This document shows positions 17,364 to 22,795 of a stretch of DNA of 64,000 bases, one piece after another. The DNA is from Bacteroidales bacterium (GTDB lineage: Bacteria > Bacteroidota > Bacteroidia > Bacteroidales > P3), in NCBI GenBank assembly GCA_031260565.1, contig JAISLH010000015.1, positions 452 through 64,451 of the forward strand. The letters run 5' to 3'. A program made the position numbers and the translations under genes. Every line of letters starts with the position of its first letter. Position 1 is the stretch's first letter. The notes beneath the pieces are model-generated. The model was given only the letters and a program-made list of their open reading frames with translations, did no database searches and was not told where the DNA came from.

Positions 17364-18494
17364 GTGGTACTGTTATATCTTATAGAAAAGGAGTTCAAAC
17401 AAACGTTTCGCAATAAGTTTATACCAAAACTTATTGTTATCTTTCCTTTTATTGCCTTAATTCTGCTGCCTTTTGCCGCCAATATGGAGATTAAGAACGT
17501 GAATATAGTCGTAGTGGATAACGACAAAAGCAGCTTCTCAGGGCAACTAATTCAAAAACTTGACGCTAATAAATCCATTACTCTGTTTGCTCTCTGCCCT
17601 ACCTATTTGCAAGCCTTTGACCTTGTAGAAAAAGACAGGGCGGATGTGATTGTGGTCTTAAACAGGAATATGGAAAAGGACATCAGCATTGCTATGACTA
17701 CCAAAGAAGATTTAACAGGCGGCACGGCTTCGTCAAAAATCCTTGTTGCTACCAATGCTGTCAATGCTGTCAAAGGGACTTTGGGGGCAATGTATGTTAT
17801 GAATATTATTGCTGACTTTGCTGCTGATAAAGCCGCCATTGCAGGAAACACAACGCCGTTGGAAATACGCCCTTCCTATGCTTTCAATGAACGGTTAGAG
17901 TATAAATATTTTATGGTGCCGGCTTTGATGGTTATGATACTGACTGTGCTTTGCGGCTTCCTGCCTGCACTAAACATTGTCGGAGAGAAAGAAAACGGGA
18001 ACATAGAGCAAATGAACGTTACACCCGTTAGACGGCTTACTTTTATTGCTTCAAAGCTCATACCCTACTGGATAATTGGAACGTTGGTTATTTCAATAGG
18101 GTTTTTCGTTGCTTGGATTATTTATGGCATTACTCCTGTGGGTAGCTTTTTGACTATTTACTTCTTTGCTTGGCTGTTCATTTTTGCCGTTTCTGGTATG
18201 GGGTTACTTATCTCCAATTACTTTGAGACCTATCAGCAAGCTATGTTTATTATGTTCTTTCTTCTTATGATATTGCTTTTGATGAGTGGGTTATTTACTC
18301 CTTTTGCGTCAATGCCTCCGTGGGCACAATCTATCGGAAGGCTTTCTCCGCTGAAGTATTTCATAGAAACGATGCGTGCAGTCTATCTAAAGGGGAGCAA
18401 AATACCTGACCTAATCCCACAGCTGCAATCACTGATTACCATCGCATTTGTACTTAACACTTGGGCTATATTCTCCTACCGCAAGAAGAAATAA
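17364..18494 (+). CDS. ABC-2 type transporter permease
   Basis: It has the YbhS/YbhR-like architecture: an N-terminal TM segment, a large extracytoplasmic loop, then 5 TM segments. No ATPase gene is adjacent. Confidence 0.7.
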   Translation: MVLLYLIEKEFKQTFRNKFIPKLIVIFPFIALILLPFAANMEIKNVNIVVVDNDKSSFSGQLIQKLDANKSITLFALCPTYLQAFDLVEKDRADVIVVLNRNMEKDISIAMTTKEDLTGGTASSKILVATNAVNAVKGTLGAMYVMNIIADFAADKAAIAGNTTPLEIRPSYAFNERLEYKYFMVPALMVMILTVLCGFLPALNIVGEKENGNIEQMNVTPVRRLTFIASKLIPYWIIGTLVISIGFFVAWIIYGITPVGSFLTIYFFAWLFIFAVSGMGLLISNYFETYQQAMFIMFFLLMILLLMSGLFTPFASMPPWAQSIGRLSPLKYFIETMRAVYLKGSKIPDLIPQLQSLITIAFVLNTWAIFSYRKKK

Positions 18495-19018
18495 GGGTTG
18501 GCTGAATTGTTAGCATATTCCGCAATCGTTAGAGCAAGTTGGCGGACGTCAAGGTCTGCTGACGGGTAAATTATATCTGCTTGGAGGTAATAGGGTTTGC
18601 GTTGTGCTAAAAACTTCTCAATAACTGACGGCAGGCTTTCGTTGCTTACGTTTTGTATTATGGGGCGTTTGACATCTGCGGCTTTGCTTCGTCGCAAAAT
18701 AACCTCACTTGGCACATCAAGGAAAACACTTACGCCGCTTTCTTTGCAGAGTCTCATATTGTCAAAGAAGCAAGGAGTCCCACCTCCGAGCGAAATAACA
18801 ACATCATCCTTCCTTTGCAGAAAATCAAGCAAGACTTCTCTCTCCCATAACCTGAACCTGTCTTCGCCAAAGGACGCAAAAATGTCTTCAATCGTCATTT
18901 TGTACAACTCTTCTATCCGCAGGTCAATGTCAAGGAAGGTATAATTCAGTTCTTTCGCCAGAGCAATGCCGGTAGTCGTCTTCCCGCTGTACATAAATCC
19001 CGTTAAAATTATCTTCAT
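18476..19018 (-). CDS. aroK: Shikimate kinase
   Basis: It has MKIILTGFMYSGKTTTG (P-loop), LDIDLRIEE and ISLGGGTP motifs and is about 180 aa. Confidence 0.85.
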   Translation of the reverse strand: MKIILTGFMYSGKTTTGIALAKELNYTFLDIDLRIEELYKMTIEDIFASFGEDRFRLWEREVLLDFLQRKDDVVISLGGGTPCFFDNMRLCKESGVSVFLDVPSEVILRRSKAADVKRPIIQNVSNESLPSVIEKFLAQRKPYYLQADIIYPSADLDVRQLALTIAEYANNSANPYFFLR

Positions 19019-19024
19019 ATTCGT

Positions 19025-20035
19025 TTATCGTGTATATGGAGTTAGGTCAAGGGTGGCAAATGCCTTCTTTTGATATTTGAAAAGGGCTGCCGCCGCAATC
19101 ATAGCCGCATTGTCGGTAGAATATTGGAGTTTGGGAATAAAGACTCGGCAGTTATATTGCTCACCAAGTGCTTTGACCTGCTCTTTAAGGAGTGAATTGG
19201 CAGAAACCCCCCCTGCTATTGCGATTGTCTGAACTCCTGTATCCTTAACGGCAAGGGAAAATTTCTTCATCAGAGAGGAAACGACCGCAAACTGAACACT
19301 TGCCGCAATATCTTCAAGATTATCTTCAATGAAACGGGGATTGTCTTTCAGTTTGTCCCTTAAAGTGTAGAGAATACTGGTTTTAAGCCCCGAAAAGCTG
19401 TAATCATAGCCCGGAAGATTGGAGGCAGAGAATTTCAGAGCGGAACTATTGCCATTTTTAGCAAGTCTGTCTATATGCGGACCGCCGGGATATGGCAGCG
19501 AAAGGAGTTTAGCCGCCTTATCTATGGCTTCTCCTGCTGCATCATCAATAGTTTTTCCTATGATTTGGAAGTCAAATGGGCTTTTTACGAGAACTATCTG
19601 CGTGTTGCCGCCAGAAACCAAAAGGCAAAGGAAAGGAAATTGCGGTTGTTGGGCATCTTCTGAATCTTTAATGAAATGTGCAAGGATATGCGCCTCTAAA
19701 TGATTGACGTCAATCAGAGGTAACTGCAAGGACTGAGCAAAAGATTTTGCGAAGCTAACGCCTACCAGCAAAGAGCCGAGAAGTCCCGGTCCGCGAGTGA
19801 AAGCTACTGCCGACAAATCTTCCTTCTTTATGCCGCAAGACCGCAGAGCCTTATCAACAGTCGGTATGATATTGGACTGATGTGCCCTTGACGCAAGTTC
19901 AGGTACGACCCCGCCGTATTCAGAATGGACTTGCTGGGAAGCAACTGCGTTGGAAAGGATACGAAAAGAGCTATCTATGACAGCAGCCGAAGTGTCATCA
20001 CAAGAAGACTCTATCGCCAAAATATATTCCGTCAT
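19025..20035 (-). CDS. tsaD: tRNA N6-adenosine threonylcarbamoyltransferase
   Basis: It has ILAIESSCDDTSAAV, HLEAHI and a Kae1/TsaD-like overall pattern, at 336 aa. Confidence 0.9.
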   Translation of the reverse strand: MTEYILAIESSCDDTSAAVIDSSFRILSNAVASQQVHSEYGGVVPELASRAHQSNIIPTVDKALRSCGIKKEDLSAVAFTRGPGLLGSLLVGVSFAKSFAQSLQLPLIDVNHLEAHILAHFIKDSEDAQQPQFPFLCLLVSGGNTQIVLVKSPFDFQIIGKTIDDAAGEAIDKAAKLLSLPYPGGPHIDRLAKNGNSSALKFSASNLPGYDYSFSGLKTSILYTLRDKLKDNPRFIEDNLEDIAASVQFAVVSSLMKKFSLAVKDTGVQTIAIAGGVSANSLLKEQVKALGEQYNCRVFIPKLQYSTDNAAMIAAAALFKYQKKAFATLDLTPYTR

Positions 20036-20049
20036 CTTTTTATCAGCAA

Positions 20050-21435
20050 TTAGAGAGCTTTTAAGTCGCAGAAGTCAATTTCCCGCTTCATTAAGTTTAC
20101 TTTTTTAACTTTTACGCTGACTTTTGTCCCAATTTGAAAGACTTTTTTATTTCTTTTGCCGACTACTGCATACTTTTTCTCGTCATAAAAATAGTAATCG
20201 TCCCCCAAAGTTTCCATCATAGCAAGACCTTCGCATTTATTCTCGTCAAGTAAAACGAAGACCCCGAACTTTGCCACTCCCGAAACGACACCTTCAAAGC
20301 GATCACCTTCCTTCTGTAACAAATATTCTGCCTGCTTAAACTTGATACTTGCCCTCTCCGCCATTTCAGCTTGCTTCTCCATAGTAGAACAATGCTCGCA
20401 CTTCTCTTCCAAGTCCGCCTTATTGACAGAAGGTTTCCCCTCCATATATTTTTTCAGTAGCCGATGAACCATTAAGTCAGGGTAACGGCGGATAGGTGAA
20501 GTGAAATGAGAATAAAATCGGAAGCCCAGCCCATAATGTCCCAAGTTATCGGTAGAATATACCGCCTTACTCATCGTTCGCAGGGCTATGGACGAAAATA
20601 AAAGGGCGTTGGGCGTATCTTTGGTGGTCTCAAACAAATGATTGAGGCTCTTGGCGAGCGACAGACGGGACTTATCATCTATTTTGTAGCCAATTTTCTT
20701 AACGTAGGTCTTGAATTGTGCCATTTTCTCCTCATCCGGTACGTCGTGGATACGATAAACAAAGGTCTTTCTCTTGGCTTTTTCTTTTTTGTCGCCGATA
20801 TGTTGTGCCACCGTCCGATTTGCCAGCAACATAAACTCTTCTATCAGAAAATTCGCCTCCTTTAATTCGTAGGAAATGACGGCTATCGGCTTTTTGTGTT
20901 CATCAAGTACAAATTTAACCTCATCTGATGCGAAGTTTATAGCACCTTTTGCAAATCTGTCCTGACGTAATATTTTCGCAATGCCCCAAAGTTGTAATAT
21001 CTCCTTCTTAAAATCACCTTTACCTCCCTCTATCATCTTCTGAACCTCGTTATAAGTAAATCTCCTGTTGGAATTTATCAACGTTTCAGTTATCTTATAA
21101 TCCAAGACTTCTGCCTTGTCGTTAATGATAAAGACTACTGCAAAGGTAAGCCTGTCTTCATTTGGCACTAAGGAACATAAATCATTGGAAAGTTCTTCTG
21201 GCAACATCGGGATAACTCTATCCACCAAATAGACAGAAGTAGCCCGTTCATAAGCCTCATTATCTATCGCCGAACCCTCCTTTACGAAAGAAGAGACGTC
21301 AGCAATATGCACTCCAATCTCGTAATTACCGTCAGAAAGGGGACGAAAACTTAAAGCATCGTCAAAATCTTTGGCGTTATCGGGATCTATTGTGAAGGTG
21401 ATGACGTCTCTAAAATCAATTCTTTCGTTTTTCAT
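20050..21435 (-). CDS. rnr: RNase R/RNase II family exoribonuclease, RNB plus S1 portion only (lacks the N-terminal HTH/CSD region)
   Basis: It begins at the RNB entry motif DFRDVITFTIDPDNAKDFDDALS. It contains HFGL...YSHFTSPIRRYPDL and a C-terminal S1 domain (GVVSGVAKFGVFVLLD). Confidence 0.85.
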   Translation of the reverse strand: MKNERIDFRDVITFTIDPDNAKDFDDALSFRPLSDGNYEIGVHIADVSSFVKEGSAIDNEAYERATSVYLVDRVIPMLPEELSNDLCSLVPNEDRLTFAVVFIINDKAEVLDYKITETLINSNRRFTYNEVQKMIEGGKGDFKKEILQLWGIAKILRQDRFAKGAINFASDEVKFVLDEHKKPIAVISYELKEANFLIEEFMLLANRTVAQHIGDKKEKAKRKTFVYRIHDVPDEEKMAQFKTYVKKIGYKIDDKSRLSLAKSLNHLFETTKDTPNALLFSSIALRTMSKAVYSTDNLGHYGLGFRFYSHFTSPIRRYPDLMVHRLLKKYMEGKPSVNKADLEEKCEHCSTMEKQAEMAERASIKFKQAEYLLQKEGDRFEGVVSGVAKFGVFVLLDENKCEGLAMMETLGDDYYFYDEKKYAVVGKRNKKVFQIGTKVSVKVKKVNLMKREIDFCDLKAL

Positions 21436-21438
21436 TCG

Positions 21439-21858
21439 TTAGCTTTGTAATCCGTGAATATCAACATTCGCTTCTACAAGCGTAACATCGTTTTTAAGAA
21501 ATGCACTGAACTCAGATGAAGGACGGAAGGTGCAATGAATTTCATCCTCCCCATCTACGCTAACTTGGGCGAGAGTAGTTTTGTTAGCGGACTTAAGAAA
21601 CGGCACAAGCGTTCCCAAAGCTCCAATCTCAACGGAATATCCCGATGCAATCTTTTCTTTAATCACATCAGTCAGGGCAAAAACAGCCGCAGATACGTCT
21701 GCTCTTGTCAATCCTTCCCGCTCTGTTATTTCTTTCACAAGGACATCAAATGAGATTCTCCCTGCATTAAACCGTTGCTTGCGGTATCTTGTACCCGGAT
21801 TAGCACCTACCGTCTGATTTTTCATTACCTTTACGAAAGGAAATTCTAATTTTTTCAT
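21439..21858 (-). CDS. Bacteroidota-type HU-like DNA-binding protein
   Basis: It is 139 aa. LTRADVSAAVFALTDVIKEKIASGYSVEIGALGTL resembles HU/IHF-fold proteins of the Bacteroidales HU_2 type. Its stop lies 3 nt before the RNB ORF start. Confidence 0.65.
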   Translation of the reverse strand: MKKLEFPFVKVMKNQTVGANPGTRYRKQRFNAGRISFDVLVKEITEREGLTRADVSAAVFALTDVIKEKIASGYSVEIGALGTLVPFLKSANKTTLAQVSVDGEDEIHCTFRPSSEFSAFLKNDVTLVEANVDIHGLQS

Positions 21859-21893
21859 TATAAAACTAGTATTAAGTTATTAATTATATGGTG

Positions 21894-21901
21894 CAAAATT
21901 A
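21894..21901 (-). promoter_or_regulatory. -7 promoter box (TAATTTTG) for the HU-like/RNB transcription unit
   Basis: TAnnTTTG lies 36 nt upstream of the ATG at 21858. Confidence 0.45.
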
Positions 21902-21958
21902 CTAAAAAAATCGGACATAAAAACAACAACTCGGCAGCTGTCAAAAACTAAGTGCCGA

Positions 21959-22060
21959 CTTGTTGAAAAAAAAGTGGCTACTTTTGCCCAAGAAGTAGCC
22001 ATTTTATTTAAAAAAAGTGGCTACTTTTTACCCAAAAGTAGCCACTTTTTTTTCAACAAG
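21959..22060. repeat. Nested palindrome with perfect 27-bp inverted arms and an internal oppositely oriented pair of the same core
   Basis: cttgttgaaaaaaaagtggctactttt (21959-21985) is the exact reverse complement of 22034-22060. Inner copies aagtagcca (21992-22000) and tggctactt (22018-22026) allow alternative pairings. Confidence 0.9.
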
Positions 22061-22118
22061 TTGGGACTTCTGATTATCAAGTACTTACAAAGGGGTAATT
22101 TTGGGGTATTTTCAGCAT

Positions 22119-22150
22119 AAAAAAAAGGCACTTCCCGTTAGAAAAGTGCC
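22119..22150 (-). terminator. Rho-independent terminator of the 121-aa ORF
   Basis: On the minus strand, ggcactt-(10 nt)-aagtgcc is followed by T8, about 80 nt after the stop at 22231. Confidence 0.65.
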
Positions 22151-22230
22151 CCCGTCATCTTAATAAAAGAACGTGAAAAAAATTTATTTTTAGGCGGCAA
22201 AGTTACTACTTTTTCCGAGAATGACAAGTT

Positions 22231-22596
22231 TTAGTCGGATTTTTTTGCAAATTTTGCGGTAAGTTCTTTCATTTCGGCGATAGTTTCCGGCTTGAAGTTG
22301 GGAGCAAATTCAAACTGTTTGAGGATAGATTGCATCACCGTCTCATTTAGTTCTTCAAGCAAGGCAGGGTCTGACTTAAAAGAGCCATAAGAGAGGCGAA
22401 ATTTGCCTGTTTCGGTCTGAGTTAGTAGCTTCTGCTGAGCAAGTTTTAGGAGGGTTTTAGCGATTTTTGCCCTGCTGATTTTATCGTTGAGGCTCAAACG
22501 TGCTGCCACCTGCCGAGTGCTTAAAATTCCCTGCCCACAAGTTGTAAAAATGCGGAGGATAGATTGTTCAAAGTGGGAAATATTTTCTTCTTTCAT
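22231..22596 (-). CDS. RNase R N-terminal fragment-like ORF (winged-helix HTH plus pre-RNB linker, no cold-shock domains)
   Basis: ILSTRQVAARLSLNDKISRAKIAKTLLKLAQQKLL resembles the RNase R HTH_12 region. VMQSILKQFEFAPNFKPETIAEMKEL is colinear with E. coli RNase R VDIALRTHEIPYIWPQAVEQQVAGL, which immediately precedes the RNB domain. Confidence 0.5.
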   Translation of the reverse strand: MKEENISHFEQSILRIFTTCGQGILSTRQVAARLSLNDKISRAKIAKTLLKLAQQKLLTQTETGKFRLSYGSFKSDPALLEELNETVMQSILKQFEFAPNFKPETIAEMKELTAKFAKKSD

Positions 22597-22708
22597 TGGG
22601 CAAAAGTACTATTTTTTCCCATAATATGAAAAAAAATGTGCCGCCTGCATAAAAACAGACGGCACGGCATATAAGATTGGATTAGCCTTTCCAACTAAAA
22701 AAAGGCTG

Positions 22709-22795
22709 CGGAAAGGGAGGGATTCGAACCCTCGGTACCAATAAAGGTACAACGGTTTTCGAGACCGTCCTAATCGACCACTCTAGCACCTTTCC
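22709..22795 (-). tRNA. tRNA-Ser (anticodon CGA)
   Basis: The reverse complement GGAAAGGTGCTAGAGTGG...ACGGTCTCGAAAACCGT...long variable arm...GGTTCGAATCCCTCCCTTTCCG folds as a class II cloverleaf. The 7-bp acceptor pairs, and the anticodon loop is CT-CGA-AA. No CCA is encoded. Confidence 0.9.

Follow-up and report, generated by a model that had tools for sequence, protein, structure and literature searches.

In the window analyzed here, a 64,000-nt stretch of the Bacteroidales contig JAISLH010000015.1, the gene for the exoribonuclease RNase R (rnr) is split in two: an open reading frame (ORF) of 461 aa (20050..21435) encodes the catalytic RNB domain followed by an S1 domain, and an ORF of 121 aa (22231..22596) corresponds to the N-terminus of the enzyme. 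The gene for an HU-like protein of 139 aa (21439..21858) is located between them, and the genes of the locus are all encoded on the minus strand. The split as well as the positions of the ORFs had been described in an earlier sequence-only reading of this DNA and were confirmed here. However, its explanation, namely that a 0.8-kb segment with the HU-like gene had recently disrupted an intact rnr, did not hold: the HU cassette is a secondary addition, and we consider it likely that an old fission of rnr was followed by stepwise loss of accessory domains. The genome holding the window (G000; 2.05 Mb, 99% complete) was compared with three congeners (G001, G002, and G003), which are metagenome-assembled genomes (MAGs) from the same uncultured Bacteroidales genus, with 41 related genomes surveyed for rnr by means of the RNase R model, and with two metagenome contigs from the same sample and from different organisms (L028 and L041). 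Two further proteins served for comparison: P0003, a full-length RNase R of 724 aa, and P0002, a 124-aa homolog of the small ORF encoded on L028.

The catalytic gene and the age of the split

Pfam detected RNB at residues 5-332 of the 461-aa ORF (E 1.6e-113), from the first profile position onwards, and S1 (PF00575) at residues 375-455 (E 3.3e-9). Alignment with the RNase R model TIGR02063 is limited to positions 244-707 of 711, and the start at model position 244 bears out the earlier proposal that the protein begins exactly at the entry of the RNB domain. The score of 586.5 bits is just under the curated equivalog cut-off of 597.85 bits, while the superfamily model TIGR00358 is passed with 445.4 bits (curated cut-off 368.6 bits). 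The catalytic motifs TIDxxxAxDxDDA, with the Asp cluster, and HFTSPIRRYPD are kept, with TIDPDNAKDFDDA and HFTSPIRRYPD aligning with the respective motifs of the enzymes from E. coli (5XGU) and B. subtilis (8CDU), and the ORF as a whole aligns to residues 247-705 of B. subtilis RNase R. The helix-turn-helix (HTH) and both cold-shock domains (CSD1, CSD2) are absent from the polypeptide, which shows neither the fused CSDs nor the fused winged HTH (wHTH) of RNase R. Moreover, a search of the genome with a profile of RNase R N-termini detected no RNase R CSD anywhere in G000, in agreement with the earlier assumption that these domains are missing altogether, and neither a second RNB gene nor another intact rnr was found in this 99%-complete genome. 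The 461-aa protein would be the active RNase R of the cell, with looser gating of substrates; activity with relaxed substrate selection may be expected of an enzyme without CSDs since engineered RNase R consisting of RNB only behaves in this way. Since the 461-aa gene stays narrowly under the equivalog cut-off and no family model matches the small ORF significantly, annotation pipelines will label the former a generic 'VacB/RNase II family' protein and the latter 'hypothetical'.

Most rnr genes in the 41 related genomes are full length, and the exceptions include the relatives from the same genus. G001 and G003 possess RNB+S1 genes of 462 and 470 aa, which are 66% and 71% identical to that of the window, begin at the same start region (M..R.DFR..xTFTIDP) and each have their own TAnnTTTG promoter; N-terminal remnants upstream of these genes were not found in either genome. 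The gene order rnr-tsaD-aroK, represented in the window by tsaD (19025-20035, minus strand), which starts 14 nt past the RNB+S1 stop, and the subsequent aroK (18476-19018, minus strand), is kept in G001, G003, and L041 and was not seen next to full-length rnr in other genera. By this comparison of gene neighborhoods, the synteny marks the clade with split rnr. In L028, the small ORF is followed by a 153-bp spacer with a TAgcTTTG box and then by the start of the RNB ORF (MNNKRKDFRNVITFTIDP...). L041 comprises the 3' part of the small ORF (...MQNILKQFEF...), a 197-bp spacer with a TAATTTTG box and an RNB+S1 gene of 464 aa (77% identical), downstream of which tsaD (81.5% identical) and aroK are located. 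No HU gene is present in the spacer between small ORF and RNB in either L028 or L041. The first 10 nt of L041 (cttccgatct) resemble an Illumina adapter end that was not trimmed from the assembly.

The N-terminal part of the enzyme has met with different fates within the genus. G001 possesses, on a separate contig, an intact 251-aa ORF comprising wHTH, CSD1, CSD2 and linker, which shares its end boundary with the 121-aa ORF; a word-based search with this protein matched only itself. The N-terminal profile gave no match in G002 and G003, and in G000 it matched only the 121-aa ORF. In G002, no RNB gene was found genome-wide at a completeness of 95%, and in contig C48 of this genome (L038 4115-6061) ftsX is located 36 bp upstream of a tsaD that is 78% identical to that of the window, which may indicate that RNase R is dispensable in this genus. 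P0009 (243 aa) was considered as a second stand-alone N-terminal gene and was rejected: RNB coding continues in shifted frames at L040 3580-4629. In L040, a JGI 3300042597 contig, either rnr is frameshifted or the assembly is faulty, and this is no clean fission.

Following this, we propose that in the ancestor of the genus an RNase R gene upstream of tsaD-aroK would have broken at the junction of pre-RNB linker and RNB domain to give two genes, and that the RNB+S1 gene would have stayed a working 3'-5' exoribonuclease. The N-terminal gene would have been retained in complete form (wHTH-CSD1-CSD2-linker) and moved elsewhere in G001, and would have been lost in G003, with the whole of rnr apparently gone in G002. 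In the window's lineage and in the metagenome relatives nearest to it, both CSDs would have been removed by a single in-frame deletion, leaving a protein of 121-124 aa that consists of wHTH plus linker. Only in the lineage of the window would a copy of a dispersed repeat and a duplicated HU-HIG gene have been inserted into the short spacer; the end of the small ORF, from its last codons to stop and terminator, is now supplied by the repeat, and the HU-HIG promoter probably drives RNB+S1, tsaD, and aroK. A tree of the RNB+S1 region unites P0003 with the three truncated genes (support 100/100) and places it as sister to this trio; the gene for P0003 is not adjacent to tsaD. A single origin of the fission is the favored interpretation. 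Several observations weigh against this scenario. The monophyly of the truncated trio is supported at 79/64 only, and a tree pairing the window with P0003 was not rejected by the approximately unbiased (AU) test (p-AU 0.27), so that two independent fissions are possible. The absences in G002 and G003 rest on MAGs with completeness of 95-98%, and both L028 and L041 are short contigs; L041 is without the 5' part of the small ORF, and among these two contigs CSD loss is therefore proven only for L028. Furthermore, the nuclease of G003 does without the small protein.

The sequence-only reading had held that the HU-like cassette of 0.8 kb cut an intact rnr in the recent past, leaving a fresh pseudogene or an emergency arrangement. 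This would be in line with the almost seamless tiling of full-length RNase R by the two pieces and with the nature of the intervening DNA, which, being composed of a dispersed repeat and a paralogous gene, was clearly inserted. However, L028 and L041 have the split without the cassette, and the CSD deletion occurs without it as well, as proven in L028. About 130 CSD codons are missing, which a simple insertion does not explain. Moreover, the truncated RNB+S1 is common to the congeners at 66-71% identity, and the small ORFs of the window and L028 are both still open at a divergence that has saturated synonymous sites. We regard a recent disruption as very improbable. The opposite case had also been envisaged, in which close relatives would all have the same two ORFs with a conserved function of the small one as an ancient architecture. 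The findings come close to this: the split is indeed shared by relatives, but within the genus the small ORF varies instead of being uniformly conserved.

Beyond this genus, further deviations from the full-length enzyme were observed. G017, which belongs to another genus of the family, has an RNase R of 499 aa (C19; L020 3984-5483) in which a basic low-complexity N-terminus and a linker precede RNB and S1; it is without HTH or CSDs, sits on a very long branch (1.08) and is not encoded beside tsaD. Here the accessory domains were probably lost independently. In several genera of the same family, represented by G009 (C3), G024 (C25), G020 (C2), and G016 (C5) (L022-L025), the rnr matches begin at model positions 49-66, and these genes appear to be without the N-terminal HTH. 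Judging from such alignments, the N-terminal architecture of RNase R seems to be labile across the family.

Identity and possible role of the small ORF

The 121-aa ORF, with a wHTH at residues ~1-70 and helices of the pre-RNB linker at residues ~84-115, has no significant match in Pfam or NCBIfam. As the family models are silent, its homology was shown via close full-length relatives. An exhaustive phmmer search, which took in 1.84 billion representative proteins, found P0003 at E 4.8e-8, a protein whose RNB+S1 part is 70% identical to that of the window. In pairwise comparison, residues 6-69 correspond to residues 10-73 of P0003 (E 2e-13); in a further local alignment (E 6e-6), the conserved core pairs residues 84-115 with 220-251 of P0003. 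This colinear alignment in two pieces upholds the earlier identification of the ORF as an RNase R N-terminus. In the multiple alignment, the winged helix and the pre-RNB linker are present in the small ORF and ~130 residues, corresponding to CSD1 and CSD2, are absent. Additionally, a profile of the N-termini matches B. subtilis RNase R at residues 8-242 (E 1.2e-22) and the RNB+S1 ORF begins at 247, and thus the two pieces tile the B. subtilis enzyme (8-242 and 247-705) almost seamlessly, as had been suggested before. On the strength of these alignments, the 121-aa ORF is to be regarded as a genuine RNase R N-terminus from which CSD1 and CSD2 were deleted in frame. A pattern scan with the 121-aa protein gave one irrelevant wHTH match, in an Acidobacteriaceae MAG, among genome contigs and none among metagenome contigs.

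Comparison with the homolog on L028 revealed that the small ORF has been maintained over considerable divergence. P0002 is 61% identical to the 121-aa ORF, and the boundaries of the deletion are identical. Between the two ORFs, the nonsynonymous divergence (dN) is 0.27 and the synonymous divergence (dS) is saturated; since no dN/dS figure is possible at saturation, selection was gauged by the differences at the first, second and third codon positions, which were 0.28, 0.18, and 0.58, respectively. Identity amounts to 50/69 residues in the winged helix and 12/18 in the linker motif, and the stretch MQxILKQFEF does not vary among the window, L028, and L041. That the frame was kept open despite saturated synonymous divergence clearly points to a small ORF held by purifying selection. 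Moreover, the -7 box TACTTTTG (22601..22608, minus strand), located 4 nt ahead of the ATG of the small ORF, is kept at the same place in L028 (538-555, as compared to 22594-22608 in the window). With the box 4 nt from the ATG in both organisms, the small ORF is probably translated from a leaderless mRNA. The upstream boundary of the locus is formed by tRNA-Ser(CGA) (22708..22795, minus strand) with its own terminator (22665-22638).

The AlphaFold2 (AF2) model of the small protein has a predicted local distance difference test (pLDDT) value of 76.9, with 82-92 in the winged helix and 60-75 in the helices at residues 70-81, 85-96, and 103-119. When the model was compared with the PDB by means of Foldseek, only generic winged-helix repressors were returned and none at E <= 0.001; the best matches were MarR, MecI, and BlaI repressors, the top one with E 2.4e-3 and a TM-score (TM) of 0.52. 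Similarly, Penicillinase_R matched the sequence at E 0.0029 with 18.4 bits, below the curated cut-off of 22.6 bits. The ORF was not assigned to the BlaI/MecI/MarR-type repressors, as both sequence and fold matches are below significance.

What the small protein does may be considered in the light of these results. One view would be that it is a decaying remnant without function, open merely by chance, with only RNB+S1 of importance. Its absence from G003 and G002, the lack of a Pfam or NCBIfam match, a C-terminal tail that is variable and partly supplied by the repeat, and the modest pLDDT of 60-68 in the helical tail would all be consistent with decay. However, 121-124 codons have been kept in two lineages at saturated dS and a dN of 0.27, the excess at third positions is strong (0.58 vs 0.18-0.28), the frame of L041 is open over the 3' part with MQxILKQFEF invariant in all three sequences, and the -7 box beside the ATG is conserved; a pure remnant appears improbable. 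Among functional roles, re-use as an independent, nucleic-acid-binding winged-helix regulator of the BlaI/MecI/MarR kind, no longer working with the nuclease, is a tentative option. The weak Penicillinase_R match below its cut-off, the top Foldseek matches to MarR, MecI, and BlaI (E 2.4e-3 and weaker), the own promoter and terminator of the ORF in the window, and a G003 nuclease that works without it point in this direction. By contrast, none of these matches is significant, the best-kept stretch outside the wHTH is the RNase R linker motif that directly precedes RNB in the full-length enzyme, and the small ORF stays beside RNB+S1 in three lineages. An equally tentative option is a natural two-subunit RNase R in which the 121-aa protein would dock in trans on RNB+S1 via the retained pre-RNB linker helices (MQxILKQFEF). 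If so, docking would bring a winged-helix anchor to a nuclease now devoid of its cold-shock gate, and the genus would display successive stages in the disassembly of the enzyme: a fused form, a split form with CSDs, another one lacking them, the core by itself, and no enzyme. We infer that the small protein has one of these two roles or some other selected one, and it may still act together with the nuclease.

The inserted segment between the two pieces

The 139-aa protein encoded between the two rnr pieces belongs to the HU-HIG family (PF18291, E 1.9e-15, 57.5 bits as compared to the curated cut-off of 26.2 bits). Its gene has a probable promoter of its own, as had been noted before, with the Bacteroidetes-type -7 box TAATTTTG (TAnnTTTG; 21894..21901, minus strand) read directly from the sequence, and its TAA stop is located 3 nt before the RNB ATG. 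Nine further HU-HIG matches with 29-52% identity are present on eight other contigs of G000; the nearest relative, on C42, shows 52.5% amino acid and 68% nucleotide identity, the latter with 50 nt of upstream sequence included. No homolog above 42% identity was found in the congeners, and the gene, a lineage-specific paralog, is absent from this position in L028, L041, G001, and G003. Inspection by eye showed no TAnnTTTG box in the stretch from the HU gene to the RNB ATG, and for this reason RNB+S1 is probably cotranscribed with the HU-HIG gene: the HU-HIG promoter probably drives a transcript comprising HU-HIG, RNB+S1, tsaD, and aroK. In G001, a gene of 460 aa (C9; L018 4598-5980) is divergently oriented to RNB+S1, and by eye its product appears to have an HU-CCDC81-like N-terminus and a SPOR-like C-terminus. 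This would be a different HU-superfamily member from the HU-HIG protein of the window, and its adjacency to RNB+S1 is probably coincidental.

From the small ORF to the HU promoter, the sequence consists of a single copy of an intergenic repeat (21895..22245, no strand) that is palindromic, mosaic, and dispersed in the genome. Six other copies, all in intergenic spacers and with 80-91% identity, are present on five contigs of G000: C25:33993-34342 (356 bp, 83%), C40:3236-3464 (230 bp, 91%) and the shorter copies C35:17772-17958, C35:10294-10449, C6:657-813, and C126:464-612. The repeat is similar to repetitive extragenic palindromes (REP), bacterial interspersed mosaic elements (BIME) and miniature inverted-repeat transposable elements (MITE) in occurring in multiple intergenic copies with palindromic modules. 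The copy in the window includes both secondary-structure elements that the sequence-only reading had pointed out, and both are real: an intrinsic terminator-like hairpin of 13 pairs with a T-run downstream of the small ORF (22124..22153, read from 22153 to 22124 on the minus strand), and a nested palindrome with 60-nt arms and GTGGCTAC cores (21950..22069, no strand). The arms of the latter are 87% complementary with 0 nt between them, and the predicted fold has an energy of -83.3 kcal/mol with a z-score of -8.2. A search of the locus against Rfam gave the tRNA as the sole match above threshold, the palindrome producing spurious sub-threshold matches to miRNA precursors. The members of the family share a conserved left module (ccctttgtaagtacttgataatcagaagt), after which nested palindromes follow. 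The palindrome core varies by copy (GTGGCTAC, GTCCCAC/GTGGGAC, or GTCGGCAC/GTGCCGAC), and within each copy the cores of both arms match, which means that pairing was preserved by changes on both sides.

The repeat reaches into the coding sequence. The copy in the window covers the last 15 nt of the small ORF, and the C25 copy includes aaaaaatccgactaa, which in the window encodes the last residues KKSD of the small ORF and its stop; the terminator hairpin is found in the C25 copy as well. As the repeat itself holds the end of the ORF and the terminator, the insertion took the place of the ORF's original 3' end and of the whole original spacer. The locus is thus an instance of a dispersed repeat rewriting the 3' end of a gene and of an HU-HIG paralog capturing the genes downstream.

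These features may be set against what is known of the respective families. HU-HIG genes undergo rampant lineage-specific expansion and fast divergence and have no conserved operon links (PMC5499826). G000 resembles this in having many fast-diverging paralogs without conserved operon partners; however, the copy in the window, at 3 nt upstream of RNB+S1, is probably the source of the latter's promoter, although nothing suggests a functional linkage. As for REP/BIME/MITE-like repeats, the likeness lies in the dispersed, intergenic, hairpin-forming mosaic with promoter-like and terminator-like modules, whereas the copy in the window differs in overlapping a coding 3' end and providing its stop codon.

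A natural series of RNase R truncations

The accessory domains of RNase R are thought to gate RNA entry and to anchor the enzyme on the ribosome, and the evidence comes mostly from engineered truncations. In B. subtilis, the HTH anchors RNase R on helix 23 of 16S rRNA, and in E. coli it recruits proteases (PMC12320835). As compared to canonical RNase R (Rnr/VacB of E. coli and the B. subtilis enzyme, PDB 8CDU), the 461-aa protein likewise has the RNB domain, including every acidic residue and the RRYPD motif, with S1 behind it, and the N-terminal fragment shows homology with the wHTH and with the stretch immediately ahead of RNB. The differences are that two genes are involved, that CSD1 and CSD2 are absent genome-wide, and that the 461-aa protein is without the K/R-rich tail and ends right after the S1 match, as P0003 does.

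Naturally truncated RNB enzymes are already known. RNase R of Haloferax volcanii and RNase II of Deinococcus radiodurans are natural RNB enzymes with rudimentary or missing accessory domains (PMC12320835). They likewise represent RNB exoribonucleases working without the full set of accessory domains, and they demonstrate that an enzyme without CSDs can be the only RNB protein of a cell. However, they are single genes without a separate N-terminal remnant, whereas here S1 is complete, the wHTH has become its own gene, and intermediate stages are visible in one genus. Furthermore, engineered truncations of E. coli RNase R (RNB alone or CSD deletions) are active and break down even duplex RNA that has no 3' overhang, though less efficiently (PMC5714204; PMC12320835). 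These constructs have the same domain content as the enzyme discussed here; the latter differs in having evolved under purifying selection.

In the open-access text, no report was found of an RNase R fission in which the N-terminal gene survived in remodelled form and several stages can be seen within one genus. The genus offers natural counterparts, under selection, of the truncation constructs: an RNB+S1 enzyme without CSDs as the sole RNB protein, a separate wHTH protein with or without CSDs, and one relative in which RNase R was not detected. With these counterparts present in one genus, the in vivo need for each domain of RNase R becomes directly comparable.

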